IMG/VR virus record: IMGVR_UViG_3300042516_003452
Coordinates: 1-64,000 of that record
DNA: 64,000 bases
Source of the DNA: a virus
Strand: one strand, 5' to 3'
Under the pieces are notes generated by a model that saw only the letters and a list, made by a program, of their open reading frames with translations, did not search any database and had not been told where the DNA came from. Positions 25,237 to 61,818 of the stretch are shown here, piece after piece (position 1 is the stretch's first letter; every line of letters begins with the position of its first letter). The position numbers and the translations under genes were made by a program.

Positions 25237-25263
25237 TTGGACTTACATGCTGAGCAATGCCAA
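25237..25263 (-). ncRNA. UAAGU-bulge hairpin motif (family B)
   Basis: UUGG-CA-UUGCUCAGCA-UG-UAAGU-CCAA. Confidence 0.6.
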
Positions 25264-43210: not shown

Positions 43211-46150
43211 TTAGCGAATACGACGTTTTGCGGCAGCTTGTGACATTAACCGATTACCGAAGTTTTGAAGCTGAGAACCAGAGAGGCCATAACGCCTAAT
43301 GGTTTCAGACTCAGATAACTGACCAATGCCACCCGGTACAGAACCTAGACCTAATCCTAATTCCTGTTTACCACGGACGACCTGTCCTCCTGGAGTTAAA
43401 TTAGCAGCCAACGCGAATTGATTGCGTTGTGCACCTTGACTAAGAGAACGTGGTTCCATAGAGACTTGGAGTTGGCTCTCTGGGTATTGATAATTACCTG
43501 TTGAAACTCGGCTGATCGGTCCCATTGCAGGAGCAGCTGGTCCAGTGTAAGGATTCTGCGTACGAGCAAAGGAACCAATATTCATGGTTGGGACACGCGT
43601 GCGTCCGACCACATTGCCGGTCTGAGGATCACGCACAGGAACAACCTTCATACCTTCACCGGTTTGAGGTGTTTCCATCTGGCTGCGTAGAGCAGACATC
43701 TGAGCACCAGTTACAGTAGAGGGCTCAATGGCAACACCAGTTGTCCTCAGGGGAGCTGTAGAAATACGCGGTGAGTAATAAGCCACATCGACATCAACGC
43801 CGCCATCCCCAACGGTCATTGGATCAATTCCACCTTCGCCTCTGACTTGGTATTGACCAGGGATTGGAGCTGCTTTACCGGTGGTTTTGTAAATCGGATA
43901 GCCGTATGGATTGAAACCAGCAACAACTTTTTTACCTTCTTTGTTGACTTGGATTCTTTCACCAAAGATTGGTGTATCCTTCTCAGTCTTCAGAAGACCC
44001 ATCACCATTGCATTGGCCTCTTGTGGGTAATAAAGCTTGCCGGAAGCTTGACTGATTTGTGGCTTAAGAATGGGAACATCGATCCCTTCTTTATTCATTA
44101 AGTAATCATCAACTGCTTTAACGATGAACCCTTGGTAGTCATAAGCCTCACCGATGTCGGAAAGCGTTTTGCCTTGCGCCAGGCCCAACTCTAGGGCTTC
44201 GGGATTGTTCTCACGTAAGTAGGCAGCTTTAGCGGAAGGATTATTGAAGTAATCCGATTGGGCTCTTTCTGCCACACTTTGGATCGTGGCACGGTCCAGG
44301 GCCACAGGCTCTGGTTTTGCCGTTTTCAATGTGGTCCAACCAATACGTTGTTCACCTTGCGTTAAAGGTGTACGTCGAATACCAAGCAAGGGGCCTTCGC
44401 CAACAATCACTCGCCGAGACGTTGGTTTGTACGGCTGGCGAATATTTGTGCCAGGAATGGTTTCTCCATACATGATGTCTGGAGCCCAATCCGAAATAGG
44501 TTGGGTTGTGATCTTGGCAGGAACAACATCAACAGCCGTTTCAAAACCACCGATCAACTTATTGGTGCCAACATTGATGTCAGAAGTTTCAATACCCATT
44601 CCACCCTTGTAACCAACATCTTGCATGCGAAGAAGTTGACCAAAGGAAAGATTGGGATCTTGGCCAAGAACATTAATACCAGCGGTCTGAATACCAGAAG
44701 GATCACGGCGCAGTGGAACAACGACATCGGCAGCGCGTAACTGACGTTCAGAGCCAGGAGCAGCAGCTGAAGCTTCTTGAACAACACCAGGAATTTGAGT
44801 GGTACCTTTGTTAGTGCGTTCTCGGAAAGACTCCGTTTCGATTAAAAGGTTACCGACACCTTCCGTATCGCCATAATCCGTACCCATTTCGCGATTGGCG
44901 GTCATGACCTCAGTTGGGTCATAGTCGTAATCGTCGACTTCTTGGTAGTAGTTACCAGTGTTGGGGTCGTAACTAAAACCTGCTTGCTCTAGTTTTTCTT
45001 TCTGCTGGAGCTGCTTCAGGTTTGTTGTGTCGTGATAGGTCAAGCCCGTACCACCAACGCCAGCGGTCTCAAGCTCTTCCACCAATGCATCCGGCATGGA
45101 AGCACGAGCGCCACCAGCAATCTCCATGGTTGGGTTGCTGCTAACAGCCCCGCCGCGAATTTTGGGAGTTGTACCGAGATACTCAGTGATCCTTTCGCGT
45201 GGTACTTCAGGATTCAAGATTTGATCACGGATTGCCCGTGGATAAGAAGCGGCAGCCATTGTCCGCTCCAAAATTTCCTCTGGTGTAAAGCGATTGCGTG
45301 CAGTAGCCGATTCAGAAACCGTACTTAAATCAAGAGCGCGACCTGCACTTAAGCCACTACGTGTAGAAACACTACCAATCTTGGCACCACGTAATAAACG
45401 AGCTTGTTGTGGGGTTAGTTCCAGCTCACCAGTTAGATCTGAGACTGAACGTCCGGTTCTTTCATAACGAGGTCCGTAAAATTCCTGAGCCTGGCGGCCA
45501 AGGTTCTCAAGCTGCTCTTCTAATTCCCAAGCGTTACCGCTGACAATTCTTTTGGGAGTTGTTTGAGCAATACGTTGAACTTCTTGGGGGAATTGGGAAA
45601 CTTGCTCAGCAACTTGGGAAGTTCTTGCGATACGGTCAGCATCTCGACTGAAACTTACAAAGTTATTGACTTCACGTTGTTCGGGTATCACAATGCCCTT
45701 GGAAATAACTTGATCAAGACCTGCGTCAGAGGCTTCGACCTGCTGACTGCGAACTTCATCGATCAGATTCTGCTGAATGCTGGTTAAATCAACAGTTGCC
45801 TGCGGAATTGCCGTTTCAGGCGCTGCAACTTTGGAAGGACGGACCAAAGGTGCCTGAGATATGGCTCGAAGATCGGATTCACGCGGAACACGAGGCTTTC
45901 CAACGGGAGCAGGCGCCTGACGACCGCGTAATGCCCGGTAACCAAGGGTGCCAGCTCCCAATGCACCTAAGCCCAGGGCTGCGGCACCCAAAATTCCCGC
46001 CAATGGGGACTCTTCTTGTGGTTGACGGAGCTGATTGGCGCGAAAATCACGAACTGCTGGGGCTAAAGCAGCCCTTTCCTCCGGATCTTCTGGGTATGGG
46101 GTACCAGTGGCGCGGCTGTAGGCAGCAAAATCGGCAGGTGACAGGGCCAT
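43211..46150 (-). CDS. Large virion-associated protein
   Basis: 979 aa, first gene of the minus-strand block. Confidence 0.65.
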   Translation of the reverse strand: MALSPADFAAYSRATGTPYPEDPEERAALAPAVRDFRANQLRQPQEESPLAGILGAAALGLGALGAGTLGYRALRGRQAPAPVGKPRVPRESDLRAISQAPLVRPSKVAAPETAIPQATVDLTSIQQNLIDEVRSQQVEASDAGLDQVISKGIVIPEQREVNNFVSFSRDADRIARTSQVAEQVSQFPQEVQRIAQTTPKRIVSGNAWELEEQLENLGRQAQEFYGPRYERTGRSVSDLTGELELTPQQARLLRGAKIGSVSTRSGLSAGRALDLSTVSESATARNRFTPEEILERTMAAASYPRAIRDQILNPEVPRERITEYLGTTPKIRGGAVSSNPTMEIAGGARASMPDALVEELETAGVGGTGLTYHDTTNLKQLQQKEKLEQAGFSYDPNTGNYYQEVDDYDYDPTEVMTANREMGTDYGDTEGVGNLLIETESFRERTNKGTTQIPGVVQEASAAAPGSERQLRAADVVVPLRRDPSGIQTAGINVLGQDPNLSFGQLLRMQDVGYKGGMGIETSDINVGTNKLIGGFETAVDVVPAKITTQPISDWAPDIMYGETIPGTNIRQPYKPTSRRVIVGEGPLLGIRRTPLTQGEQRIGWTTLKTAKPEPVALDRATIQSVAERAQSDYFNNPSAKAAYLRENNPEALELGLAQGKTLSDIGEAYDYQGFIVKAVDDYLMNKEGIDVPILKPQISQASGKLYYPQEANAMVMGLLKTEKDTPIFGERIQVNKEGKKVVAGFNPYGYPIYKTTGKAAPIPGQYQVRGEGGIDPMTVGDGGVDVDVAYYSPRISTAPLRTTGVAIEPSTVTGAQMSALRSQMETPQTGEGMKVVPVRDPQTGNVVGRTRVPTMNIGSFARTQNPYTGPAAPAMGPISRVSTGNYQYPESQLQVSMEPRSLSQGAQRNQFALAANLTPGGQVVRGKQELGLGLGSVPGGIGQLSESETIRRYGLSGSQLQNFGNRLMSQAAAKRRIR

Positions 46151-46270
46151 TGGGTACTTATTAGCTATAAATTCCTTGTTCTTTGTATTTTACTGGGGGA
46201 AACTTAGGTAAAAAGTGAATACGGTAGACTATTACCAAAAGAATCGCTGAACATCCGGGTTAATAAGGAC

Positions 46271-46480
46271 ATGAACCCTAAGAATGCTTTAGAAAAAGCA
46301 ACTGCACTGTACGCAATTGCGGATGCGGCCGAAGATTTAGAGAAAGCTGGGGCTGCACCATTCGAAGTCAAGGCGTTTACGACTGGTGCCAGGGAAAAAT
46401 TGGCAGAAGAACGACCTGATTACGACAAATACGCCAAAGCTTACGCTGCTTCTTCCCGTTTTGCACAAAGCAACCAGTAA
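46271..46480 (+). CDS. Hypothetical protein
   Basis: AAGGA SD, 69 aa. Confidence 0.55.
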   Translation: MNPKNALEKATALYAIADAAEDLEKAGAAPFEVKAFTTGAREKLAEERPDYDKYAKAYAASSRFAQSNQ

Positions 46481-46738
46481 GTAAAAGCGTTAATTAGCAC
46501 ATTGTTAATAGCCGGGGCCACAAACCCCGGCATTTTTGTGTGTTTTCTTGGGTAAAACCCCTGTAAACATGACACTTTTTGCAAGGGCCGCCCCCTATAG
46601 GGGCCAAAAAGGATAAAAAATTTCCTGACGCTTCTCCAACACCCCACGCGACGCGAGTTGCGTATAGAAAAAAAGAAAGGGCGGGGGCTGCGCATCCGAA
46701 GAACGCAGGCAAATCAAGTCAGTTTACCGACAGGAACC

Positions 46739-47038
46739 ATGACTCAGGCCAAAGTTAGCACCAAGGGACAGCGCTGGCAGCATGACTGGCGGCGTCAAGT
46801 AGGCGAGCGCCCAACAGAGAGTAACGCCAAGCTTTTCCACAGCTATGTGGAGATGGCGTATCAGTTGCTCGAGGAGTTTAGCTCAGCCGACTTTATCTAC
46901 AGCGAAGTCAGGCAAGTCTGCCAACCCCAGTATCTCTTCCAGGTGGTCTGTGACATGCGAAGCGAGAAGCTAAGCATGCGCATTTGGACCACCGAGGAAG
47001 GATATAAGGCGGTGTCCATCCACAAAATCCCTGTCTGA
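46739..47038 (+). CDS. Early hypothetical protein
   Basis: AGGA SD then MTQAKV. Confidence 0.55.
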   Translation: MTQAKVSTKGQRWQHDWRRQVGERPTESNAKLFHSYVEMAYQLLEEFSSADFIYSEVRQVCQPQYLFQVVCDMRSEKLSMRIWTTEEGYKAVSIHKIPV

Positions 47039-47133
47039 TACGTTCGCGTATCGCGTACGGGAAAGATCTGCTCCCCGCCCCGCACTTGTTCATACAGAAC
47101 AGTTTCGCAACAGGAGCGTGGTCAAGTCACGGT

Positions 47134-47167
47134 CTTGGCAGCTGCAATCCCGCAGCGTAAGTCCAAG
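47134..47167 (+). ncRNA. UAAGU-bulge hairpin motif (family B)
   Basis: CUUGG-CA-GCUGC/GCAGC-G-UAAGU-CCAAG. Confidence 0.65.
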
Positions 47168-47184
47168 CTCACCGGAGTAACACC

Positions 47185-47412
47185 GTGACCAACACCATCG
47201 CCACCGTCCGTCGTATCGACTGCGTGGACATCACCAAGATGTCACACGAGGAGATCTTCGACATGTGTGGCGTACCAACCCGGCAAGAAGCTGGCGACAA
47301 CGTCATGCTTCAGGTCCTCGACCTGCTTGAGCACGGACGTAGCCAGGTACTTACTGCCGAACACCTCCAGGTCATCAAGTCCTACGTGGACGAGATGCTG
47401 GAGACCAACTGA
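47185..47412 (+). CDS. Early hypothetical protein
   Basis: GGAG SD, GTG start. Confidence 0.6.
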   Translation: MTNTIATVRRIDCVDITKMSHEEIFDMCGVPTRQEAGDNVMLQVLDLLEHGRSQVLTAEHLQVIKSYVDEMLETN

Positions 47413-47476
47413 TCCGTTAAAGCGGGCGGCAGGGTGCAAACCCCTGCCCAGTTATTGCCTACAGCGGAGATAGGCA
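47407..47476 (+). ncRNA. T-loop three-way-junction motif (family C), copy 1
   Basis: AACUG/CAGUU, UCCG/CGGG, GGCAGGG-UGCAAAC-CCCUGCC, then a hairpin. Confidence 0.65.
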
Positions 47477-47497
47477 CCGCACACACAGGAGTTACCT

Positions 47498-47578
47498 GTG
47501 CACTTCACCACCTACGAATCCGTCGCACTCATCACGATCTTCATCGTGAGTTGCGTAATCGGATACGTAACCGACTGA
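47498..47578 (+). CDS. Hydrophobic peptide (26 aa)
   Basis: AGGAG SD; MHFTTYESVALITIFIVSCVIGYVTD. Confidence 0.5.
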   Translation: MHFTTYESVALITIFIVSCVIGYVTD

Positions 47579-47641
47579 TCCGTCTAAGCGGGTGACCAGG
47601 TGCAAACCCTGGTCCAGTCATTGCCACCCACCGAGGGTGGC
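47573..47641 (+). ncRNA. T-loop three-way-junction motif (family C), copy 2
   Basis: GACUG/CAGUC, UCCG/CGGG, GACCAGG-UGCAAAC-CCUGGUC, then a hairpin. Confidence 0.65.
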
Positions 47642-47658
47642 TTAATTTAACTCAGCTC

Positions 47659-47814
47659 ATGCGAGTTACCTACCAAGATCTGCTGCAGTGGTTCACTGAA
47701 CAGCAACTAGATGATGCCGTCATCATTGCCCGTTGCACAGCAGATGCATTCCCTCACCTCAACTACGAGCAGCGACTTGTCAAAGTCCTGGTCGAAATGA
47801 AGACCTACGCCTGA
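47659..47814 (+). CDS. Early hypothetical protein (51 aa)
   Basis: Manual translation MRVTYQDLLQWF... Confidence 0.5.
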   Translation: MRVTYQDLLQWFTEQQLDDAVIIARCTADAFPHLNYEQRLVKVLVEMKTYA

Positions 47815-47823
47815 TCTACTACC

Positions 47824-48072
47824 ATGCTGATCTATCAACCCAAGTGTGACGACCGTACTCGCGTAGCCTGGTACGGAGGAGAGTCTACACAGCTACACTT
47901 CCAACACCGTGGTATCACCGAGAGGTGGATCGACATCGAGACACGTACTCTCATGGGTGATATCCCAGGTGGTGTGAAGGAACTGCTTGCAGAAATGCAA
48001 GACTTTTACAACTACTGCTACGGCGAGACTTCCATCCTCGACCAAGATAACCTCATCGGCACGATCTTCTGA
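47824..48072 (+). CDS. Early hypothetical protein
   Basis: ORF in tandem array. Confidence 0.55.
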   Translation: MLIYQPKCDDRTRVAWYGGESTQLHFQHRGITERWIDIETRTLMGDIPGGVKELLAEMQDFYNYCYGETSILDQDNLIGTIF

Positions 48073-48101
48073 CTCCTGCTCTAAGGGCCTTCGGGCCTTT
48101 A

Positions 48102-48122
48102 CTGCAGGACTCAACATCCTGC
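48102..48122 (+). repeat. GCAGGA-CTCAACA-TCCTGC hairpin repeat (family D), copy 1
   Basis: 21 nt identical to 48933-48953. Confidence 0.75.
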
Positions 48123-48147
48123 CGTCCACTCAACTCAGCTCAACACA

Positions 48148-48363
48148 ATGACAGCTCTTAACTTCCGCAAGAACGTGCGTGAGTTTATGCCTTGGGCCAT
48201 CAGTGCTAGCCAGACTACCGCTCGTGTAGTCACCAAGGCAGTCACTGATACTGCAACCAAGGCCAAGGCTACTGAGAAGCTACATGACATCCGTTGTCGT
48301 GCAGCAGCACTCATCATGCCAAACGACATGGCATTCATCATCACTCCTAAGAACAACATCTGA
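48148..48363 (+). CDS. Early hypothetical protein
   Basis: AC-rich leader. Confidence 0.5.
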   Translation: MTALNFRKNVREFMPWAISASQTTARVVTKAVTDTATKAKATEKLHDIRCRAAALIMPNDMAFIITPKNNI

Positions 48364-48366
48364 CTC

Positions 48367-48576
48367 ATGACTAAGAACCACATGGTTGACTCTGTGCTTG
48401 CCCTCACCATGGGCACTGGCATCGGCTTGTTACTTTCTGTCTTTGGACAGAAGCTACTCAACAAGCATTACGTTGCCAACTGCCACAAGCAACCACACCA
48501 TAACCTCGTGTATGTCGATGGTTTCCTCGGCGACACGTACTACTGCATCAAGAATGCAGACTTTAAGCAGAACTGA
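48367..48576 (+). CDS. Small membrane protein
   Basis: N-terminal TM; GDTYYCI. Confidence 0.55.
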   Translation: MTKNHMVDSVLALTMGTGIGLLLSVFGQKLLNKHYVANCHKQPHHNLVYVDGFLGDTYYCIKNADFKQN

Positions 48577-48585
48577 AGCCTGCAC

Positions 48586-48891
48586 TTAACCCTTCCGTAC
48601 GATCCGCTCTTGACAGAAGCTTGGTTTCCATCGGACTATCAAGCTTCTTTCTGAATCGTATGCATCCCATCCTTCTATCCAGGAAATCTTAGTGGTGGTG
48701 TAATCAACATCACCACGTTGAAAGCCTGGATGTTTAGATGGGTTACGCAATCGATTCCACAGTATTTTGCTTCGACCAATGTACAAGACATTGTCATTGG
48801 CATCAATCAATGCATAGCATCCAGGTTTGGCTGGTATATTTCTGGCGTCTTGCCAGCACACCCACTGCCATTTCCTCGGATCTAGTTCCAT
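48586..48891 (-). CDS. GIY-YIG nuclease domain protein
   Basis: PGCYAL...VLYIGRSKILWNRL...E..LI..WKP. Confidence 0.8.
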   Translation of the reverse strand: MELDPRKWQWVCWQDARNIPAKPGCYALIDANDNVLYIGRSKILWNRLRNPSKHPGFQRGDVDYTTTKISWIEGWDAYDSERSLIVRWKPSFCQERIVRKG

Positions 48892-48932
48892 TGATCTAGC
48901 TTAATACGTTCGCGTATCGTGCGGTGGGTTTT

Positions 48933-48953
48933 CTGCAGGACTCAACATCCTGC
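48933..48953 (+). repeat. GCAGGA-CTCAACA-TCCTGC hairpin repeat (family D), copy 2
   Basis: Identical to 48102-48122. Confidence 0.75.
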
Positions 48954-48981
48954 ACTCAGTTCACTCAACATCTCAACTCAG

Positions 48982-49176
48982 ATGAAACGTCTTTACTCCA
49001 TGGGTAAGAACAGGTACATCACCTTGGATACTTACCACACACACCATGAGTCACTGCGTAGCAAATTGCTACAAGCAATCTTTATCGCCATCATTGCATC
49101 CATCACTGGTTCTGCAATGGTCGGCGTAGACCTCATTCAACTTCCATCCACTAACAACAATGTATTCACTCGCTGA
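48982..49176 (+). CDS. Small membrane protein
   Basis: MKRLYS..., one TM. Confidence 0.5.
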   Translation: MKRLYSMGKNRYITLDTYHTHHESLRSKLLQAIFIAIIASITGSAMVGVDLIQLPSTNNNVFTR

Positions 49177-49510
49177 ACACACCCAAGTTCTAGAAGCACG
49201 TATCAATCGCTTGATCGATAAGCTTCTGGAACACTACCACAAACAGTACGGAGATGGTTGCATCGAATTCAACATTGTGCGTGGCACCAAGTATTACAAG
49301 ATCATCCAGCGCAACGTCATACGTAACAACCTTGGCAGTTACGAAGGCAGCGTCCACGCCTTTATCCATCGTCAATCAGGTGCTGTTTACAAGCCCGCTT
49401 CATGGAAGGCACCAGCCAAACATGTGCGGTACAACCTGTTAGACGATGTGTCTTATGAGACCTGCCTCCTGAAAGCCGACTGGGCTGGATCGTATTTGTA
49501 CATGAAGTAA
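49160..49510 (+). CDS. Conserved phage protein
   Basis: GTKYYKI..GSVHAF..GAVYKPASWKAPAKHVRYNL, a motif recalled from myocyanophages. Confidence 0.7.
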   Translation: MYSLAEHTQVLEARINRLIDKLLEHYHKQYGDGCIEFNIVRGTKYYKIIQRNVIRNNLGSYEGSVHAFIHRQSGAVYKPASWKAPAKHVRYNLLDDVSYETCLLKADWAGSYLYMK

Positions 49511-49624
49511 CTACACACTACCTCTGGTGTCCTCACTGCCTGAACCACTACGGCTGGTACTTGCATCCTTGTTTGTACCAGCTATTCTCCATCTGCATCC
49601 AACGCATTCAACGCAACACGATCC

Positions 49625-50062
49625 ATGGAAGCGCTCAGCCAGCTCGACGTTCACAACCCTGATCACATCAGTGTCATCACTCGCGATGGAAAGATTACCG
49701 TCTCGGTTACCAAGGACGGAGCATCCGTGACCCTTGGCTTTCCTATCCGCAATACATTTGACACTACCCCCCGATTCCCCCTGCAACAACAGCCAGCACC
49801 ACAGGTAACGGCTGTTAAGGAGATCCAGGAGACACCTAAAGTTCTCAAGAAGAAGAAGACAAGGGTTAGTCCTGTAGGTAACTGCAAGCTAACCCCTGAG
49901 AAAGTCAGGAACATTAAGCAAGGTCTTGTTGATCCAGGCGTTGCTAAAGGTTTTGACAGCCGTCAGAAACTTTACGAATGGTTTGCTGACATTTATAAGG
50001 TGAGCTACCACACCATCTCCAACATTGACAAAGGTCTGGCCTGGAGAGGCGTAAAGATCTAA
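49625..50062 (+). CDS. Protein with C-terminal HTH-like domain
   Basis: KLTPEKVRNIK...ADIYKVSYHTISNI..G.AW. Confidence 0.65.
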   Translation: MEALSQLDVHNPDHISVITRDGKITVSVTKDGASVTLGFPIRNTFDTTPRFPLQQQPAPQVTAVKEIQETPKVLKKKKTRVSPVGNCKLTPEKVRNIKQGLVDPGVAKGFDSRQKLYEWFADIYKVSYHTISNIDKGLAWRGVKI

Positions 50063-50093
50063 CTACCGCCGCTAGTACATCAGTACTACGACT

Positions 50094-50121
50094 GGACCTG
50101 GACATGTCCTTAAACTGTCCA
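50094..50121 (+). ncRNA. H-type pseudoknot leader motif (family A), copy 1
   Basis: GGAC-C-UGGACA-U-GUCC-UUAAAC-UGUCCA. Confidence 0.75.
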
Positions 50122-50143
50122 TTCCTTTTACTCAGTTCAAACC

Positions 50144-50281
50144 ATGACTCAACTCGATCCCAACTACAACGCTGACTTGCTTGATGCCATGGCCGACATG
50201 GCATACGAACAAGAGCAAGCCATGCGTGAAGAATATGAACTCAACCCACCTGAACAGGAGACTTATGATGACCAAGCATGA
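50144..50281 (+). CDS. Small acidic protein (45 aa)
   Basis: MTQLDPNYNADLLDAMADM... Confidence 0.55.
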   Translation: MTQLDPNYNADLLDAMADMAYEQEQAMREEYELNPPEQETYDDQA

Positions 50282-50356
50282 ACACGACGATGACATCATC
50301 TTGCATGTCATCGTTATCATTTCAATCTTCATTCAAATCATTCTGGAGGCACTCCA

Positions 50357-50725
50357 ATGTCTTACATCTCAGAACTCAAGAAGTTCTACCCCAAAACTTA
50401 CAAGGTCCGTTACGCAGTCAACGCCTACAACACTCACAAGTACTTCGAACACGAAGACCCAACGGTCATCACCGTCCACCAAACAACGCTCAACTACGGC
50501 GGTCCAGAGGAAGGTGGATGGTGGTACCAGCAAGGCAACCCAGTCCTCAGCCACTGCATCTTCTCCAAGAAGCAGGCGATCCAAACCTACGTCAAGTACT
50601 TCGAAGAGTACGAGATCGAAGGTCAGCCCAGTCTTGGAGACACCACAACAAGCTCAAACATTGAGCTAAGTTTCTCCAACGGATACGCTCAAGTGTATCC
50701 TCAGATTCGTCCACACTATTGCTAA
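50357..50725 (+). CDS. Hypothetical protein
   Basis: NYGGPEEGGWWY motif. Confidence 0.7.
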   Translation: MSYISELKKFYPKTYKVRYAVNAYNTHKYFEHEDPTVITVHQTTLNYGGPEEGGWWYQQGNPVLSHCIFSKKQAIQTYVKYFEEYEIEGQPSLGDTTTSSNIELSFSNGYAQVYPQIRPHYC

Positions 50726-50728
50726 GTC

Positions 50729-50971
50729 ATGCAAGCAACTGCTGTACCAAACCTCAGCATTAATCAACGCAACATCTACATGTATTTCCTGAACCACAGG
50801 AAGAAGTACGGCAAGACTCCTTGCTTCGTACCAAAGTGTACAACTCAAGTATCAAGGCTTGATCAATATCTCAACGCCTTAACGAAACTTGAGCAGTACG
50901 GATTACTACGCGTTGAACGGTGCAGTGATAACTACACCGGCTGGATCATGACTGAACCTAGACAACACTAG
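50729..50971 (+). CDS. Winged-helix-like small protein
   Basis: LSINQRNIY...ALTKLEQYGLL. Confidence 0.55.
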   Translation: MQATAVPNLSINQRNIYMYFLNHRKKYGKTPCFVPKCTTQVSRLDQYLNALTKLEQYGLLRVERCSDNYTGWIMTEPRQH

Positions 50972-50988
50972 CGTTATACGCACATAAG

Positions 50989-51029
50989 CCTGGGCATCAC
51001 CGACGTAAGTACGGTGTGTAAGTCCCAGG
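50989..51029 (+). ncRNA. UAAGU-bulge hairpin motif (family B)
   Basis: CCUGGG-CA..CACCG/CGGUG..UG-UAAGU-CCCAGG. Confidence 0.65.
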
Positions 51030-51049
51030 ATTCACCTCAACCTAAACCA

Positions 51050-51325
51050 ATGACCTATCCCGAAGTCAACTGGAAGAAGAACGAGTATCACCAACTGCAA
51101 GAGGTGGTGAACCTCCTCAAAGCAATCCAAGAACGTGAGAGCAAGCGCCATCAAATGGACGAGCATCTCACTCCACATACCGCAGATGTGGTACTGGAAG
51201 TCATAGGCATGCTCGAAGATGAGATCGACTATGACCCAAGTCCTTCCGAAGGGGGCGAACCGCCTATCACACTGGATGAAATGCATACTGCTGCATGGAA
51301 AGAACATCAAGCCATGCATAGCTAA
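51050..51325 (+). CDS. Hypothetical protein
   Basis: GGEPPITLDEMHTAAW. Confidence 0.6.
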   Translation: MTYPEVNWKKNEYHQLQEVVNLLKAIQERESKRHQMDEHLTPHTADVVLEVIGMLEDEIDYDPSPSEGGEPPITLDEMHTAAWKEHQAMHS

Positions 51326-51465
51326 CCCCCCTGCACCCCCCGAAGGGAGTACCAGGAGCTAACCTTCTATTAGATAAGACATACTTATCTGTTGCTCTCT
51401 GTTACTTCCCTTCCTTACCCCTTGACTACCCTGGTAGACTCAACACACTTACTCAACTCATCTCA

Positions 51466-51672
51466 ATGAAAGACAACACTCCTCGCATACCAGACTCACT
51501 GGATATGCAAAGACTTCAAGCCATGCAACTTGTTGCTCGCATGAAGGAAACATCAGATCGTCTCGGCATCGGATTCATCGGGGGCTTTATTGCCCCCAAT
51601 GGAGAGAAATTCGTCATGTCCAATATGGACGATGAAGACTACAACGCACTCATGCCGGAGGATCTGAAATGA
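51466..51672 (+). CDS. Hypothetical protein
   Basis: AC-rich leader. Confidence 0.6.
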   Translation: MKDNTPRIPDSLDMQRLQAMQLVARMKETSDRLGIGFIGGFIAPNGEKFVMSNMDDEDYNALMPEDLK

Positions 51673-51736
51673 ATACCTTATTCATCGCAGTACTTTCTGT
51701 GATGATTATTTGTGGAACAATCATGATTTTAGAGAA

Positions 51737-51934
51737 ATGACCAAGCGTTTGCCCATCAGCTTTGATCGCACCATCCATGGTGTGAACATCACCGAACACG
51801 GTGTCAAATCTTATAGCAAAGCAGTGAAGCTTGGTCCTTTCCAAGTAACACTCAATGCTAGTCCGAATGGTGTCAAGGGATCAATCAGTATCCCTGGCAC
51901 AGGACTTAGCATTCCAAACATTAAGATAATCTGA
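51737..51934 (+). CDS. DUF4236-like small protein
   Basis: KLGPFQVTLN...SISIPGTGLS. Confidence 0.55.
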   Translation: MTKRLPISFDRTIHGVNITEHGVKSYSKAVKLGPFQVTLNASPNGVKGSISIPGTGLSIPNIKII

Positions 51935-51940
51935 AGAATT

Positions 51941-52117
51941 ATGACCTATCAAGAACTTTTATCTCAACTTGAAGTAATGAGTCAAGAACAATTAAACATG
52001 GATGTAACTGTTTATGTCTGTGATACTGAAGAATATTATGCAATCCAAGATGAAATTGTTTTTGCCACAGAAGAATGTGGCGTACTTGATATAGATCATC
52101 CCATATTGTATTTGTAA
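51941..52117 (+). CDS. Small AT-rich gene (58 aa)
   Basis: MTYQELLSQL...QLNMDVTVY. Confidence 0.55.
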   Translation: MTYQELLSQLEVMSQEQLNMDVTVYVCDTEEYYAIQDEIVFATEECGVLDIDHPILYL

Positions 52118-52122
52118 GTAAC

Positions 52123-52148
52123 TGGGCATCCTTACGGTGTAAGTCCCA
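52123..52148 (+). ncRNA. UAAGU-bulge hairpin motif (family B)
   Basis: UGGG-CAUC-CUUAC-GGUG-UAAGU-CCCA. Confidence 0.6.
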
Positions 52149-52176
52149 AACCTTGTCCACTTACTCAATTCAACTT

Positions 52177-52365
52177 ATGTCTGCTTACACTGAAGACCTT
52201 ACCATGTTTGATCGAATTAATCTGGCTGCCTGCGCACAGCGCAGAGCAACAGATAATCTATTTGATTCAAATCGTTGGAATGGCGAGTACGACACAGCAC
52301 GTTTGTGGATGAAGTATCGCCTCATCAAGACCACCACTTATTCGTACATTGACGAAGACTCATGA
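52177..52365 (+). CDS. Hypothetical protein
   Basis: ORF after RNA motif. Confidence 0.5.
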   Translation: MSAYTEDLTMFDRINLAACAQRRATDNLFDSNRWNGEYDTARLWMKYRLIKTTTYSYIDEDS

Positions 52366-52619
52366 CTGTCCTTGCAATCGAAGACACCCTATTCACTGAC
52401 ACCCATGTCACTGTTACAGCAGTTGTTGACGAAATGCGGTTGCTTTATCACGCAACTCATCTCGACCCTGAAGAGTGGGCTCCTGCATTGTGTACAACAA
52501 CTGTTGAACTGGATCCAGAGGAACCAATCCCTCTTGATGAAGATGGCTTCTGTGCCTATCTTGATCAGCTCGATCCTCAATGGGAACTGGTCGAACGCGA
52601 TGACTTCGATCTAGATTGA
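52362..52619 (+). CDS. Acidic hypothetical protein
   Basis: ATGA-coupled; DPEEWAPALC. Confidence 0.6.
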   Translation: MTVLAIEDTLFTDTHVTVTAVVDEMRLLYHATHLDPEEWAPALCTTTVELDPEEPIPLDEDGFCAYLDQLDPQWELVERDDFDLD

Positions 52620-52640
52620 TCGACTAATCATCTGACCAAT

Positions 52641-52668
52641 CGTCCTGGGCATGACGTTAAACTGCCCA
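52641..52668 (+). ncRNA. H-type pseudoknot leader motif (family A), copy 2
   Basis: CGUC-C-UGGGCA-U-GACG-UUAAAC-UGCCCA. Confidence 0.75.
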
Positions 52669-52689
52669 TCCTTTTACCCATTCAAATCA

Positions 52690-54414
52690 ATGCAATTCCA
52701 ACTCCCCTCCAACCTGCAAACCGAACTCCTTGCTTATGACCCAACACTGAAGGTGTTGGCTAAGCAGACTAGGACCGCATCAACCAAGAAGGCTAAGTAT
52801 CCCCTCGGTAACATTCCGCACCTTATCCCACATAACGTGGTGCGCGAATCAGATCAGCAAGCTGCGATTGATGATATCAACCAGCAGAAAGCACCTGATC
52901 GTTACAGAGTATTTACCACGCCTGTGGACGTAGCAACTCCACAGGCCAGACTCAAAGTCATTGCCATCTTGTATCACTACGAACAAGTATGGTACGCAGC
53001 ATGGCTACCTCCCAAGCAGCAAGCTGATGAGTATGTGTATGGCTATGCCTACGCATTCAAGAACACAGCGGCTGCTGCTAAGACTGCACCCCATCACATC
53101 TGGACCAGCAAAGACAAGTGCATCGAGCACGAAGGTGCTCGTGGCGTGCAGACCTTTACTTATTCAATGAACATCACCGAGGGTGATGTTCAATCAAGTG
53201 AAGGTAGTGGCTGGCGTGCCTACCAATGGCAAGCCTTTAATCTTCACTGCCAGAAAGGACGCGAGATTATTGAGCATTGCGTCCGTCCATACGAAGCAAG
53301 CCTACGGGAAAATATGCCCACATGGTCTGATTCCCGTGGATTGTTTGATCGTATCCGCTGCAAGAACGTCTTTGATGCTGCTGACATTCCTCCAAAAATG
53401 GCCGAGCTTCTTGATCTAGAGCAAGGTCTAACTGTTGATAACTTACTCAATGCAGCAATTGAATTCAACAAGAACCCTAACTTTCCATCATCAACGTTTT
53501 GTGTACTGGAAAGAATCAGTCACATCATTTCCAAGCCAGCAATCAAGAAGCTGCTGCAGGCAGAGCTTGATCGCTGCACACTTGCATACAACAACCCTAA
53601 TAACACTGAGCGCAAGCCAATTACTCAAGGCTTTAGAACCTTTGTCCACGTCATTGATTCCATTGACTGGATCAACAGGCTATGGCCTGACTGCCCACTT
53701 GATTACTACCAAACCTATTACAAAGAACTTCGTTACATCAGACTGAGTCAAGTGCGTACAAGCAGCATTAGCTCCAACTCAAATGCATTTGTTAGTTGGT
53801 TGCGTGAACACATGCCTGTTGCATCGATGTTCACAATGCTGCGCAAACAGCTCGAACAACAAACCTTGACTGGTCGAGATGCGGAGGTTGGCTATGCACG
53901 CTTTAGTTTCTTTGAACTAAATGACACATTTTCCATGGCAATCCGTATCCTTGACCATGGCAAAGAACTTGCACCACCCAAGCGTTGGCGCATTGATGAC
54001 TTCCATGACTATGTGCAAGCTGAATCCTGGAAGATCCAGAACCCTAACGAATCGTTGCGTCAAGATCTATTCCCTGAACCCATCAGGGTTACACGCAATG
54101 GTGAGACCTGGTCATTTTTCCAGCCTGTTGACACACATCAACTAGCTATGTGGGGCCAGGCCGTACGCAATTGCGTCGGCTCTGCATCACACTATGCTGA
54201 TGACATCAAGAAGCGTAAGCACTTCATCGTGCTGTGCATGATTGATGGTAAGCCCACATTCACCATCCAGTTGGTGGTTGACATGGGCCTGATGTCCGTC
54301 AAGCAAATCTCTGGTGTCGCTAACCAGCGGCTCACTGAAGACCAACGTGAGGCTTACACAGAAGCCTTCCGTGAGGTCTTGCAACAACGGGAGAAGCAGC
54401 TACAATCTGCCTGA
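52690..54414 (+). CDS. PcfJ-like domain protein
   Basis: FHD..., LAMWGQAVRNCVGS..Y, FTIQL..QISG..N. Confidence 0.7.
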   Translation: MQFQLPSNLQTELLAYDPTLKVLAKQTRTASTKKAKYPLGNIPHLIPHNVVRESDQQAAIDDINQQKAPDRYRVFTTPVDVATPQARLKVIAILYHYEQVWYAAWLPPKQQADEYVYGYAYAFKNTAAAAKTAPHHIWTSKDKCIEHEGARGVQTFTYSMNITEGDVQSSEGSGWRAYQWQAFNLHCQKGREIIEHCVRPYEASLRENMPTWSDSRGLFDRIRCKNVFDAADIPPKMAELLDLEQGLTVDNLLNAAIEFNKNPNFPSSTFCVLERISHIISKPAIKKLLQAELDRCTLAYNNPNNTERKPITQGFRTFVHVIDSIDWINRLWPDCPLDYYQTYYKELRYIRLSQVRTSSISSNSNAFVSWLREHMPVASMFTMLRKQLEQQTLTGRDAEVGYARFSFFELNDTFSMAIRILDHGKELAPPKRWRIDDFHDYVQAESWKIQNPNESLRQDLFPEPIRVTRNGETWSFFQPVDTHQLAMWGQAVRNCVGSASHYADDIKKRKHFIVLCMIDGKPTFTIQLVVDMGLMSVKQISGVANQRLTEDQREAYTEAFREVLQQREKQLQSA

Positions 54415-54427
54415 GCCCGCACGGTTT

Positions 54428-54459
54428 ACCAGCCTTAGCCTCGATACTAGGGCTGGTTT
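54428..54459 (+). terminator. Stem-loop, possible terminator
   Basis: ACCAGCCTTAG/CTAGGGCTGGT followed by TT. Confidence 0.45.
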
Positions 54460-54464
54460 CAACT

Positions 54465-54692
54465 ATGACCGACTACACCGATGATCAGCTACTCGCTATG
54501 GCTATGGCCAACATTGGTGAGTACATCACTGACAACTCACCGCAGTACATCCTGATTGACGAAGATCCTCGCAATGAGGATGACTACGACACATGGGACT
54601 ATGGCACTGAGCCATTACCCCAAGATCACACTTGGCACTCCACATCAATTGATGTAGAGGTAAGTCCAAGTGACGCAGACGTGACGGAATAG
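54465..54692 (+). CDS. Acidic hypothetical protein; 3' end overlaps RNA motif and tRNA
   Basis: MTDYTDDQLLAMA... Confidence 0.5.
   Translation: MTDYTDDQLLAMAMANIGEYITDNSPQYILIDEDPRNEDDYDTWDYGTEPLPQDHTWHSTSIDVEVSPSDADVTE
54629..54672 (+). ncRNA. UAAGU-bulge hairpin motif (family B) abutting tRNA
   Basis: CACUUGG-CA-CUC.ACAUC/GAUGU.GAG-G-UAAGU-CCAAGUG. Confidence 0.65.
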
Positions 54693-54760
54693 GTATACGT
54701 AACGCACTTAAAATGCGTCGGCCATTGGCCTTGCGGGTTCGACTCCCGCCGTCTGCACCA
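54675..54760 (+). tRNA. trnL: tRNA-Leu(UAA), intronless, CCA encoded
   Basis: GCAGACG/CGTCTGC acceptor, ACGCA-CTTAAAA-TGCGT anticodon arm, long variable arm, GGTTCGACTCC T-arm, ACCA end. Confidence 0.95.
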
Positions 54761-54783
54761 ATCCACTTACTCAACTCAAGACC

Positions 54784-55146
54784 ATGCAATTCTTTGCTGC
54801 TTTCAAGTCCCTCATCCCTGAGTTCCATGCTTATTCAGATGAGGACAACCGCTACAACCTTGGTGCCACCTGGACTGCAGCCGATGGCCTGAAGGACTAT
54901 CACAACCTGGAGCTACGGTACATCCGTAACTCTGAGCGTCTTGCTCTCCAGGGTGAGCCCTGTCCTGATGGCAGCTGGCGCTACGTCGAGCCCAGTGGTG
55001 CAGTCCATACCATCAGCCCTGAACGTGCTAAGCACTTCATGGAGCAGACACAAGCTCATGCCACACTCATGGTTGGCATGCTTGATAAGTTACGAGATGC
55101 TGGCATCCTCGATCAGATGGTAGACACCACGGCAGAACCTGCCTAA
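54784..55146 (+). CDS. Hypothetical protein
   Basis: AC-rich leader, 120 aa. Confidence 0.65.
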   Translation: MQFFAAFKSLIPEFHAYSDEDNRYNLGATWTAADGLKDYHNLELRYIRNSERLALQGEPCPDGSWRYVEPSGAVHTISPERAKHFMEQTQAHATLMVGMLDKLRDAGILDQMVDTTAEPA

Positions 55147-55164
55147 GATCACTGCGGAATGTTC

Positions 55165-55190
55165 GGCCCCTGCGCAAGCGGGGGTCTTTT
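55165..55190 (+). terminator. Intrinsic terminator
   Basis: GGCCCCTGC-GCAA-GCGGGGGTC then TTTT. Confidence 0.65.
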
Positions 55191-55194
55191 CTTC

Positions 55195-55524
55195 ATGATC
55201 ACTCCAGCTCAGTCAGAGATAGTTACAGATGTAACTGAACTCATTGCAGATTGTATCCCTGATTCCGAATGGGATCGGGTACGCAATGCAATCGTCGAAC
55301 GCATTGTCGACAACATGCCATCACAAGTTTTGCTGCAGTTAACTGACAGCATCGATAACTTTGATCTGGCTGAACTAATCCTCATTACCCACTACAAGGA
55401 AGCACCAAATCTTGAGTTGATTGTTGACGCATTCAAACTCATTGGTGCTGAACAAACTGCTGACCTCCTCGACTCACTCAACATTCAACAAGAGAATGGC
55501 ATTCCAGAAGGCGATCCTTCCTGA
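55195..55524 (+). CDS. Acidic hypothetical protein
   Basis: ORF after terminator. Confidence 0.55.
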   Translation: MITPAQSEIVTDVTELIADCIPDSEWDRVRNAIVERIVDNMPSQVLLQLTDSIDNFDLAELILITHYKEAPNLELIVDAFKLIGAEQTADLLDSLNIQQENGIPEGDPS

Positions 55525-55900
55525 CTGTCCTCAATGCAATCAACCTGGACTCAGAGTTATTGAATCCAGGAAGACAGCGATGTCTACCAGACGACGCAAG
55601 AAGTGTGAATGCTGTGGCTACAGGTTTACAACTCATGAAGTTACAGCAGACTTCTTTGAAGAAGCCAAGCACAACCTCTATCTTGTTGAACAACTCCACA
55701 AACTTATGAAGGGAACACCACTCACATCCGGGGTGGAACCACCCCCATCTGGGGTGAGTGCATCTGAATTCAAAGCACTCAACAAATGCAGTGACTGCCA
55801 TCACAACATTGATGGTTGTCATTGCGCCTTTGACTTTCCTGAGTACGACACTGCTGAGTCGTACGACTGCAATCACTTTCAACTCTGGAAATCCAAATGA
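55496..55900 (+). CDS. NrdR-like N-terminal zinc-ribbon protein lacking ATP cone
   Basis: CPQC...RVIESR...RRRKKCECCGYRFTTHE; second Cys cluster at C-terminus. Confidence 0.75.
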   Translation: MAFQKAILPDCPQCNQPGLRVIESRKTAMSTRRRKKCECCGYRFTTHEVTADFFEEAKHNLYLVEQLHKLMKGTPLTSGVEPPPSGVSASEFKALNKCSDCHHNIDGCHCAFDFPEYDTAESYDCNHFQLWKSK

Positions 55901-56199
55901 CTACCAAGCGTCAATACGATTACATCATTGGTGATCGCGTAGCAGAGCGCCCTAAATCCCATGGCATTTTTGCTGTACGCAATGAAACCAAAGATCGTAT
56001 TCAGCAGTACAGGTCCCAACGCTACGGCACTGTTGTTGGTATCAACCTGAAACCAAACAAGTCAGGTGCCAAGCAGAAGTTCCTACTAATCAGGTGGGAT
56101 CATCTGCAGACTCCCACGGAACATGCACAGATGAGGATCTGTCCTGCTGATCAGCTTCAGCGTTTACAATCTGAGGGTTATGGATTCGAAGTCGAATGA
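55897..56199 (+). CDS. Hypothetical SH3/KOW-like protein
   Basis: IGDRV...YGTVV...IRWD. Confidence 0.55.
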   Translation: MTTKRQYDYIIGDRVAERPKSHGIFAVRNETKDRIQQYRSQRYGTVVGINLKPNKSGAKQKFLLIRWDHLQTPTEHAQMRICPADQLQRLQSEGYGFEVE

Positions 56200-56552
56200 A
56201 AGTCGACAAGCCATGGGGTTGGTACAACACACTGACCCCAGAACAAACCTCATTGTTCCGTGGCTACCTCGTTAAAGAACTCCATGTCAACAAAGGCCAT
56301 CGCCTCAGTCTTCAGCGCCATCAACACCGGTGTGAACACTGGATCGTTGTCAATGGCGAAGGATTGTTTGAGTGTGATGGCCGTACACAAATTGTGAATG
56401 AAGGTACTCACTTGTACATTCCAAAGCAATCAGTGCATCGCCTTACTGCAACAGAGCAAGACATTCGTATTGTCGAAGTTCAATGCGGTGAAGTAATCTC
56501 TGAAGACGACATCGAACGTCTGGAGGATGACTATGATCGATCACAGAACTAG
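56196..56552 (+). CDS. Mannose-6-phosphate isomerase type II-like cupin
   Basis: KPWGWY, RLSLQRHQHRCEHWIVV.G, IVEVQ.G..SEDDIERLED. Confidence 0.88.
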   Translation: MKVDKPWGWYNTLTPEQTSLFRGYLVKELHVNKGHRLSLQRHQHRCEHWIVVNGEGLFECDGRTQIVNEGTHLYIPKQSVHRLTATEQDIRIVEVQCGEVISEDDIERLEDDYDRSQN

Positions 56553-56553
56553 C

Positions 56554-56745
56554 ATGGTTGTTCAAGCAATCATTTGGAGTGTAGTCATCACAGGATTCAG
56601 CCTCCTACTCGTTGGCATGATCTTTGGTGAGCCAGAAACAACCGAGGATAAATTCAAAGTTGTTGACAACTACAAAGATTGCCAAGTCATCCAGTACAGT
56701 CCAAGCAACGCTGCTCGCTACCAGTACTTTCTTCACTGTCCATGA
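56554..56745 (+). CDS. Small membrane protein
   Basis: TM plus FKVVDNYKDC..YFLHCP. Confidence 0.55.
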   Translation: MVVQAIIWSVVITGFSLLLVGMIFGEPETTEDKFKVVDNYKDCQVIQYSPSNAARYQYFLHCP

Positions 56746-57380
56746 ACGTTGAACTTACCTGGGTAACACCCAACGCAGAAGAACTCATTGTCAAGATGGC
56801 ACGGGTATCTGCACCCAAGAATCAAGACAACATGGACACTGCTCCACGGTTGTTGCGGTATCTGATCAAACACAAGCACTGGTCGCCATTTGAAATGGCA
56901 AACATGTGCGTAGAAATTGAGACGACGCGTGCAATCTCACCACAGATTCTTCGTCACAGATCATTCTCATTTCAGGAATTTAGTCAGCGTTATGCAGACA
57001 CCAGTGAGCTTGGCTCAGCTGTTATTCCTCATCTGCGTCGTCAAGATCACAGGAATCGTCAGAACAGTATCGATGATCTGTCTGCTGATGCAATCAGTGG
57101 TTATTACCGCCGCATTAGCAAGTTGTATGAAGACGCTGAACATCTCTACCGCGAGATGGTTAGCAGCGGCATTGCAAAGGAATGTGCAAGGTCCGTCTTG
57201 CCACTTTCGACACAGACTCGTCTTTTCATGAACGGTACACTGCGTTCATGGATCCACTACCTCCAGCTTCGTTGTGACCCAGGAACCCAGCTCGAACACA
57301 GGCAAATCGCAGAAGCAGTCAAAGGAATCTTCTGCAAAGAATTCCCCATCATTGGAGAAGCAGCCTTTGCAGAAGACTGA
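56742..57380 (+). CDS. thyX: Flavin-dependent thymidylate synthase
   Basis: HWSPFE, QILRHRSFSFQEFSQRY, AKECARSVLP, TQLEH. Confidence 0.95.
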   Translation: MNVELTWVTPNAEELIVKMARVSAPKNQDNMDTAPRLLRYLIKHKHWSPFEMANMCVEIETTRAISPQILRHRSFSFQEFSQRYADTSELGSAVIPHLRRQDHRNRQNSIDDLSADAISGYYRRISKLYEDAEHLYREMVSSGIAKECARSVLPLSTQTRLFMNGTLRSWIHYLQLRCDPGTQLEHRQIAEAVKGIFCKEFPIIGEAAFAED

Positions 57381-57399
57381 TGAACTCAAGCAGTGGCGA

Positions 57400-57516
57400 T
57401 CAGAAGGTCGCGGCGCTTTGTTTTTTTAATTCCATCACGGCATGCTTGGACTCCACATCCTTGCGTGCCAGCTTCTTCCGTTTGTCCACCAAGTAAACGA
57501 TCAATGCTTTGTTCAT
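57400..57516 (-). CDS. Small basic protein (38 aa)
   Basis: MNKALIVYLVDKRKKLARK..., ATGA-coupled to the DUF4278-like gene. Confidence 0.5.
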   Translation of the reverse strand: MNKALIVYLVDKRKKLARKDVESKHAVMELKKQSAATF

Positions 57517-57665
57517 TTGATTTGACCTCCAGTGACAAAGGGAAAGTAGCAAACGTTACGGTAGGTCAGGCAGAGCCAGGGACGGTGGGCTAAGTTCCAC
57601 CAAGCTCTGTCTGCCTTGGCCTGATCCTCTTGGTTGTATTTGCAACCACGATACGTTAACGTCAT
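57513..57665 (-). CDS. DUF4278-like protein (50 aa)
   Basis: MTLTYRGCKY...LTYRNVCY tandem motif. Confidence 0.7.
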   Translation of the reverse strand: MTLTYRGCKYNQEDQAKADRAWWNLAHRPWLCLTYRNVCYFPFVTGGQIK

Positions 57666-57672
57666 GGTTTTA

Positions 57673-57686
57673 GTATCTATTGATAC
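57673..57686. promoter_or_regulatory. NtcA-box-like site GTA-N8-TAC
   Basis: GTATCTATTGATAC between a minus-strand TATAGT (57691-57696) and the DUF4278-like ATG. Confidence 0.55.
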
Positions 57687-57748
57687 GGAAACTATATGAC
57701 GATTGATGTATATGATGTCGTTCACCAGGTAACACAACTCAAGATTCA

Positions 57749-58632: not shown

Positions 58633-58664
58633 TCACCTTCACTAACATTCCCGATCAGGAAGAT

Positions 58665-58690
58665 GGACCTAAGTAAGTCCTTAAACTGCT
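58665..58690 (+). ncRNA. H-type pseudoknot leader motif (family A), copy 3
   Basis: GGAC-CUA-AGUA-A-GUCC-UUAAAC-UGCU. Confidence 0.65.
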
Positions 58691-61797: not shown

Positions 61798-61818
61798 TAA
61801 CACCAACTTCTCAAAACA

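Follow-up and report, generated by a model that had tools for sequence, protein, structure and literature searches.

A recurrent bulged RNA hairpin at gene junctions of a cyanobacterial phage, a candidate boundary module of its messages

The messages of phages are long and polycistronic, and the early messenger RNA (mRNA) of T7 carries RNase III signals, namely R0.3, R0.5, R1, R1.1 and R1.3. In put of phage HK022 and nut/boxB of lambda, small hairpins of the nascent RNA with conserved unpaired bases occur in early transcripts, once per operon. Cyanobacterial hosts have RNase E and RNase J and, as far as we know, no Rho, and to our knowledge little is known about how their phages set the stability and the boundaries of single cistrons. 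Here, we describe a folded RNA hairpin present in five copies in the first 64 kb (64,000 nucleotides, hereafter the window) of the 84,492-bp IMG/VR virus record IMGVR_UViG_3300042516_003452. These repeats are real copies of an uncatalogued, strand-specific RNA element under selection, and we tentatively propose that they act in cis as boundary modules, shielding the flanking RNA units from exonucleases.

Intercistronic barriers have been described in chloroplasts, where sites of the PPR10 type fix the ends of mRNAs against degradation by RNase J (PMC3799425) and PNPase. In T4-type phages, promoter early stem-loop (PeSL) cassettes combine a strong sigma-70 promoter with a terminator stem-loop (PMC2839356). 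In plant and other RNA viruses, among them beny- and cucumoviruses, the element coremin, or xrRNA-C (xrRNA, exoribonuclease-resistant RNA), formed by a first hairpin with a YGAD or YGNNAD loop, a 10-nt spacer, (G)UUAAACUAC, and a second hairpin, can halt Xrn1 as well as scanning ribosomes in vitro (PMC6546385, PMC10520033), and a flaviviral xrRNA also stops the bacterial RNase J1 (PMC5760640). Repeated structured punctuation between phage genes is already known, from the T7 RNase III sites and the PeSLs, whereas the fold described here and its invariant bulge are new.

The five copies had been recognised in a preliminary description of the window, and all of them were confirmed in position and strand. 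Their common architecture is an outer stem ending in GG/CC, followed by C-A, a hairpin free in sequence and length, and G-UAAGU; in RNAfold predictions the C and the G form a pair, so that UAAGU becomes a 5-nt bulge, with one unpaired base (A or U) opposite. Copy 1 (47134..47167, + strand; stem CUUGG/CCAAG, CA, a 5-bp apical hairpin and GUAAGU; z -3.0) is located in the divergent region, before the first small rightward gene, the GTG of which, at 47185, is 17 nt past the stem. Copy 2 (50989..51029, +; stem CCUGGG/CCCAGG, apical hairpin of 21 nt; z -3.4) follows an open reading frame (ORF) ending at 50971 and stands 20 nt before the ATG at 51050, and copy 3 (52123..52148, +; stem UGGG/CCCA, apical UCC-UUAC-GGU; z 0.3), a minimal form, lies between an ORF with its stop at 52117 and an ATG at 52177, 28 nt past the stem; these three distances agree with the 17-28 nt first reported. 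Copy 4 (54629..54672, +; stem CACUUGG/CCAAGUG, apical hairpin of 22 nt; z -3.1) is contained in the 3' end of a 75-aa (amino acids) ORF (54465..54692, +), which reads through it and stops at a TAG within the tRNA-Leu (UAA) directly downstream (54675..54760, +); the copy ends 2 nt short of this transfer RNA. Copy 5 (25237..25263, - strand; stem UUGG/CCAA, apical UGC-UCA-GCA; z 0.1) begins 4 nt past the TAA of a 357-aa ORF (25268-26341, minus strand), and its orthologue in Synechococcus phage S-EIVl has a different apical hairpin.

A covariance model (R1), built from 100 distinct copies, retrieved from the 84.5-kb genome exactly these five at E <= 3e-6 (copy 1, 34.8 bits, E 2e-7; copy 2, 48.4 bits, E 3e-11; copy 3, 33.6 bits, E 4e-7; copy 4, 43.9 bits; copy 5, 30.8 bits, E 3e-6), the next match having an E of 0.66. 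The octamer GTAAGTCC occurs 7 times against 1.6 expected, and the composite pattern TGGCA..GTAAGTCC, representing one stem type, 3 times against 0.08. Two more GTAAGTCC octamers, found at 58673 and 63091, do not belong to the family, the former being placed in the loop of a different module.

Relatives were collected using as bait a 587-aa PcfJ-like protein adjoining copies 3 and 4, which gave 39 loci with protein identities of 43-91%. The element appears dozens of times over these loci, with 4-8 copies per early arm, and three times in S-EIVl. Covariation was counted on a MAFFT alignment of 100 distinct copies, in which standard pairs fill 82% of the alignment cells (64% in shuffles) and the covariation score is 0.443, compared with 0.141 in shuffles; none of 500 shuffles reached 0.443, and slid registers gave 0.10 or less. 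The covariation of the outer stem proposed from the five copies was borne out. The pair adjoining GG/CC is GC in 68 copies, UA in 27 and AU in 5, and the second apical pair is CG in 69, UA in 26 and UG in 5, neither position being unpaired in any copy.

Base conservation was scored on 109 distinct model matches, obtained without a strict pattern. The invariance originally attributed to the core stands for GGC, UAAG and CC, which show no variation, but not for its margins: 88% keep the A that follows GGC, the purine before UAAG is G in 89% and A in 11%, and the last bulge base is U in 89% and C or A in 11%. The apical hairpin is as free as had been suggested, both in sequence and in length (8-45 nt in relatives; 9-38 nt among the apical parts folded), and all apical parts fold (median z -3.4), ranging from a bare tetraloop on 3 bp up to a long interrupted hairpin.

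The element follows the direction of transcription, as first described, in all five copies of the genome and in 121 of 121 model matches (E up to 0.01) in relatives, which lie on the gene strand. Its placement between genes is also regular. Among 79 copies not linked to a tRNA, the upstream ORF (at least 45 codons) ends 30 nt or less from the stem in 57, with a median gap of 7 nt, and the distance from the core CC to the next ATG is 28-35 nt (median 32). The leader comprised between the element and the ATG, exemplified by 51030..51049 (+) between copy 2 and its start codon, has a G content of 6% and many CUCAAC-type words, and it lacks a Shine-Dalgarno sequence. Copy 1 and its orthologues occupy the 5' leader of the first gene of the arm, a location which fits a 5' protector better than a cistron separator.

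The leaders at 47168-47184, 51030-51049, 52149-52176 and 54761-54783, like those of most early genes, have about 6% G and no Shine-Dalgarno sequence, and the early-gene leaders have in common CCACUUACUCAACUCAA-type words ending in ..ACC ahead of the ATG, which suggests S1-type initiation independent of Shine-Dalgarno sequences throughout the early arm. Two simple classes were considered from the flanks of the stem. An intrinsic terminator does not fit, since no U-tract follows (at least 5 U in the 8 nt after the stem in just 7 of 81 copies). As regards a -10 element just upstream, which would put the hairpin at the 5' end of a primary transcript, TANNNT peaks 13-21 nt upstream of GG (49 of 81), and this signal is inseparable from that of TAA stop codons, with which 47 of 79 upstream ORFs end at the same position.

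The copy before the tRNA obeys rules of its own. In 60 cases, including a tRNA-Asn of an unrelated lineage, the tRNA-linked copy ends 1-2 nt ahead of the tRNA, so that RNase P cutting would leave the copy as a 3'-terminal hairpin; the core CC is 6-7 nt from the +1 of tRNA-Leu in 58 copies and 8 nt from the tRNA-Asn. Within the 75-aa ORF, the stretch ahead of copy 4 varies synonymously from one relative to another. The apical part measures 10, 16 or 22 nt in 20 distinct tRNA-linked copies, lengths that are all 1 mod 3, whereas the apical lengths of 160 non-tRNA copies fall in all three classes; thus, the tRNA-linked copy is translated as well as folded. The stop codon of ORF 54465-54692 is located in the D-arm region of tRNA-Leu, and the arrangement of ORF, hairpin and tRNA is kept, with its frame, in more than 30 relatives, even with a different tRNA sequence. 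RNase P cutting of this tRNA would leave the message of the 75-aa ORF devoid of a stop codon.

No family of Rfam 15 matches the hairpin: at the gathering score only the tRNA was recovered, and at E up to 10 on positions 46900-55000 nothing overlaps any copy. No publication about the hairpin was found in the literature, and a short-query BLAST of one copy against cultured phages returned chance matches only. The commonest variant was not found in one genome each of 185,579 prokaryote species, a set in which a broader pattern gave seven matches, one of them convincing. The latter is situated in L199, a 2.5-kb contig of a Melainabacteria metagenome-assembled genome, with a phage-type G-poor leader, and it is probably a mis-binned phage fragment.

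In IMG/VR, where a first pattern with 14 specified bases gave mostly chance matches, the broader pattern identified at least 120 loci. Within the matches listed, 47 have no detectable protein in common with this phage over the stretch fetched, and their contexts differ. One group has a high G+C content and one gene in common with the marine Synechococcus phage S-H1, which carries no copy itself; in another the element precedes a tRNA-Asn. A further example was observed in a 112,418-bp IMG/VR contig (L270:11416-11449), from a phage with no detectable protein similarity to that of the window. There, the hairpin core stands after a stop codon and about 48 nt ahead of the major head protein gene, with an unknown gene on its other side; a second palindromic hairpin and a normal GGAG ribosome site come next. 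The presence of the element in phage lineages lacking common proteins, together with its absence from cellular genomes, points to a self-contained RNA function or to a conserved host partner, and the sharing of one core by such lineages makes a phage-specific binding protein less likely.

Besides the bulged hairpin, the early arm contains a second leader module, at 50092-50121, 58650-58690 and about 61775-61810, which consists of a hairpin followed by UUAAACUG, the tail pairing back to give an H-type pseudoknot, and which precedes mainly replication-type genes. Its spacer is the coremin spacer G-UUAAACUAC of plant RNA viruses (PMC6546385). The two modules substitute for each other at one orthologous gene, encoding a protein that begins MTQLDPNY.., before which four phages, this one included, have the coremin-like pseudoknot (GACGUUAAACUG), six the bulged hairpin and four neither module. 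Like coremin, the bulged hairpin is small and structured, has a few unpaired bases that are invariant, and stands between a stop codon and the unit that follows. It differs in that it is nested, being neither a pseudoknot nor two hairpins with a GUUAAACUAC spacer, and in that no sequence is common to both. It is not itself a coremin or xrRNA-C, as it has neither such a spacer nor such a loop. An operator-like palindrome, TAGTAC-N4-GTACTA (50073-50088), lies just upstream of the module before the MTQLDPNY.. gene and is kept in relatives whichever module follows.

Taking into account the placement rules and the coremin-like swap, a function in boundary definition, stability or processing is indicated. 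The occurrence of the element at gene junctions, in the first-gene leader, before tRNAs and ahead of a capsid gene would suit a boundary module of general use, working by itself or through host machinery that is conserved. We favour, as a tentative reading, that of a decay barrier or stabiliser, which is supported in particular by the single swap, by the position of copy 1 in the first-gene leader and by the tRNA-linked copy, which RNase P cutting would turn into a 3' hairpin; the barrier, and the enzyme it would stop, are what we infer from the fold, its conservation and strand, the placement rules, the restriction to phages and that swap. According to this proposal, the element would be transcribed within the phage message and would fold just past the upstream stop codon into a G-C-clamped helix with the invariant UAAG(Y) bulge, one unpaired base opposite and a freely variable cap. 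The fixed core, either by itself or with a conserved host factor holding it, would halt RNA decay from either side, that is, from 5' to 3' by RNase J or 5'-end-dependent RNase E, and from 3' to 5' by PNPase-type enzymes. Downstream, every cistron, together with its G-poor and unstructured leader, or every tRNA would become a separately stabilised unit, and the upstream message would retain a protective 3' hairpin. The chloroplast barriers are comparable in their intercistronic position, in the cyanobacterial type of RNA decay that surrounds them and in the role proposed, namely, to define and stabilise the upstream 3' and downstream 5' ends with the leader kept free. They differ in being single-stranded sites held by a PPR protein, whereas here a folded RNA is the candidate barrier.

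A more specific version, in which the hairpin would represent a new, protein-independent, nuclease-resistant RNA class of DNA phages, with the G-C-clamped UAAG bulge as a compact tertiary lock stalling host RNase J, seems to us rather improbable. If true, phages would punctuate their polycistronic messages, by this element and the coremin-like pseudoknots, with roadblocks of the xrRNA type, as eukaryotic RNA viruses do against Xrn1.

Several observations weigh against the barrier proposal. Copies 1, 2 and 4 fold well (z about -3); folded by themselves, copies 3 and 5 reach just -6.5 and -5.7 kcal/mol (z about 0) and are weak. The minimal copies have a lower stem of 5-7 bp, then 1 + 3 bp above the bulge, and many copies have 9-11 bp in total. 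Given the weakness of copies 3 and 5 and of many minimal forms, the element is unlikely to be a simple mechanical block without a tertiary fold or a protein to lock its core. Exoribonuclease-resistant RNAs usually form a pseudoknot or a ring about their 5' end, and a search for a pseudoknot or a ring-forming partner of the bulge found none. The sense strand folds just 0.8 kcal/mol better than the antisense, which is not decisive for the strand. TTAC, the complement of the bulge, is not clearly enriched in the leader (36% with the element, 25% without). Moreover, the module swap concerns only one of 22 gene families, the 21 others with at least four members having a single module type each; the two modules otherwise stand on different gene sets, and this could mean two regulatory classes. 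A pseudoknot or switch by pairing of the GUAAGU bulge with ACUUAC or UUUAC in the leader was rejected as a specific feature on the same 36% and 25%, the CCACUUACUCAACUCAA-type leader being general to the phage group.

The alternative that comes closest is that of a specific endoribonuclease signal, of host or phage, where a cut in or beside the UAAG(Y) bulge would split the polycistronic message as the T7 RNase III sites do, and we consider it possible though somewhat unlikely. The resemblance to the T7 sites is substantial: those are bipartite hairpins that recur between early genes and at a few later junctions, share an asymmetric internal loop that is conserved, keep to the sense of transcription and leave hairpins at the message ends. 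The hairpin is distributed likewise, with several copies between early genes and a few elsewhere, it carries an invariant single-stranded bulge between invariant G-C pairs, and it adjoins the RNase P site of the tRNA. Even the weak minimal copies can be read in favour of cleavage, as implying recognition of shape and not of stability. The differences are that the cyanophage hairpins are far shorter (down to about 10 bp) and have a 5-nt bulge of fixed sequence instead of a bubble, that the hosts are cyanobacteria, and that there is no sequence similarity; besides, the T7 sites are cleaved by RNase III at the internal loop, and the cyanophage element is a putative site.

The overall 9-11 bp of many copies is short for RNase III, and a T7-type signal as defined by a duplex of about 20 bp (two turns) was discarded on account of the minimal forms. 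The copy in the leader of the first gene has no upstream cistron from which it would have to be separated. Furthermore, Pfam revealed no nuclease or RNA-binding domain in the ten proteins examined, all encoded in the arm of early and replication genes and starting with the genes immediately past copies 3 and 4, and the spread of the motif over lineages that have no proteins in common makes a phage-encoded enzyme unlikely.

The division of gene sets between the two modules is the starting point of another explanation, an operator for a post-transcriptional regulator that would set the translation or timing of one class of genes, mainly small early ones for the bulged hairpin and mainly replication genes for the coremin-like pseudoknot. 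The constancy with which 21 of 22 gene families keep to one module type speaks for this idea, and the family that switches, together with the occurrence of the element in phages lacking common proteins, speaks against it; we regard it as improbable. In its molecular detail, a protein bound to the core would repress or activate the initiation region, free of Shine-Dalgarno sequences, about 25 nt downstream. Here, the fairly constant core-to-ATG distance within the phage group (28-35 nt) and the never-varying bases, which suggest sequence-specific recognition, have to be set against the copy that precedes a tRNA and not a start codon, and against the lineage in which a late gene, that of the major head protein, has the element about 48 nt ahead of it, together with a normal GGAG site. 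The tRNA and late-gene contexts indicate that neither spacing nor timing is general.

Processive antitermination, by a hairpin of the put or nut-boxB type that, with or without a protein, would modify the polymerase so that it passes through terminators, is very unlikely. The element does resemble put and boxB as a small, promoter-proximal nascent-RNA hairpin with conserved unpaired bases in early transcripts, copy 1 follows the divergent early control region, and the arm has a few terminator-like hairpins (46511-46531, 47623-47641 and 55165-55186). It differs from them in standing at nearly every junction, right after stop codons, with 4-8 copies per early arm and not one per operon, as well as before tRNAs, inside a coding region in one such case, and before a capsid gene. 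The -10-like peak upstream is confounded by the TAA stops, and boxA-like partners are absent. Of the functions first suggested for the family, that is, protein binding, processing or antitermination, what stands is a functional, strand-specific folded RNA, as indicated by covariation, orientation and the copy in the frame-kept ORF; antitermination has become the least likely of them, and binding of a phage-specific protein less likely than before.

Finally, a role at the DNA level, by a hairpin or cruciform extruded in single-stranded or supercoiled DNA and acting as a promoter for an unrecognised phage polymerase of the N4 type, as a priming site or as a recombination joint for cassette shuffling, is very improbable: the near equality of sense and antisense folding (0.8 kcal/mol apart), the homology blocks of relatives that often start or stop at the element and the tRNA and G-poor leaders that begin just past it would agree with such a role, but the apical part of 8-45 nt is unlike known hairpin promoters, the co-orientation with genes is strict on both arms, the stems are selected for pairing and not for sequence identity, and the frame-preserving length changes of the ORF-embedded copy show transcription and translation there. 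No T7-type RNA polymerase domain and no clear sigma domain were seen; the PF00940 search of the genome gave no match with its polymerase controls silent too, so that it is uninformative, and a Sigma70_r4 match was sub-threshold only.

Other known classes were compared with the element and rejected. A sigma-70 promoter, with TTGGCA as -35 and TAAGTC as -10, needs a spacing of 16-18 bp, which is found in copy 1 (17) and not in the others (11, 12, 22 and 23), and in relatives the spacing ranges over 8-45. N4-type hairpin promoters, which a virion RNA polymerase reads, are short and have a fixed size (5-7 bp and a 3-nt loop), incompatible with an apical part of 8-45 nt. A kink-turn has a 3-nt bulge and then tandem sheared G-A / A-G pairs, and the strands here, GGC-A and R-UAAG-Y-CC, allow no tandem G-A pair. 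A riboswitch, which would go with an expression platform and with genes of one metabolic pathway, is not consistent with downstream units as unrelated as small genes of unknown function, a tRNA and the capsid gene of another lineage. The S8 site of 16S rRNA helix 21 (UUAAGUC / CUGGCA) and the 11-nt tetraloop receptor (CCUAAG / UAUGG) contain similar strands, and in both the strand order with respect to the flanking helices is reversed.

PeSL cassettes also have points in common with the element, in that they are repeated and small, border small early genes and coincide with breaks of homology between relatives. The cyanophage hairpin differs by its want of a consistent promoter or U-tract and by the fixed bulge that defines the family. 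Its assignment to the PeSLs was discarded, as a consensus promoter scan found none at the copies, the TANNNT peak is confounded by stop codons and there is no U-tract. In BLASTN comparisons of positions 45000-58000 with five relatives (L127, L128, L131, L135 and L144), homology blocks often begin or end at hairpins, with edges at, for instance, 50958/50986, 51937-52136 and 54680/54736, and insertions are seen past copy 4 and its tRNA, ahead of the next gene. Such breaks may reflect cassette exchange, or simply fast-evolving spacers.

With about 10 invariant bases, a very clean covariation, a presence in more than 120 IMG/VR contigs, many of them not related to this phage, and no place in the catalogues, the element offers a handle on how phage cistron boundaries are set, and its minimal form, of only about 30 nt, lends itself to assays with purified nucleases, to reporter work and to structure determination. 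Should it prove to be a nuclease barrier or a processing signal, it would provide a compact transcript-stabilising part for cyanobacterial engineering, and the idea of roadblock RNAs would be extended from eukaryotic RNA viruses to DNA phages. If it is bound by a host protein, it would point to an unknown step of host takeover.

The phage itself is an S-EIV1-like cyanophage of fresh water. Between its portal-like protein and that of S-EIVl, the sole cultured relative found (a polar freshwater cyanophage, 79 kb), the identity is 74%. A search of sequencing runs located the stretch in 24 DNA runs, from lake and drinking-water metagenomes, and in zero RNA runs. From about 46.1 kb the structural and packaging genes are read leftward; from about 47.2 kb the small early genes, and beyond them the replication genes, are read rightward. 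Strong terminator-like hairpins, each with a U-tract, are found at two places on the + strand, one (46511-46531) in the divergent control region upstream of copy 1 and the other (55165-55186) just within the gene starting at 55159.

The 357-aa protein encoded before copy 5 (25268-26341, -) has no family match and could not be identified as a capsid protein. Its relatives are mosaic, one being 98% identical over one third of the length and others about 40% identical over the full length, a pattern typical of a host-recognition or otherwise fast-swapping protein and not of a capsid protein.

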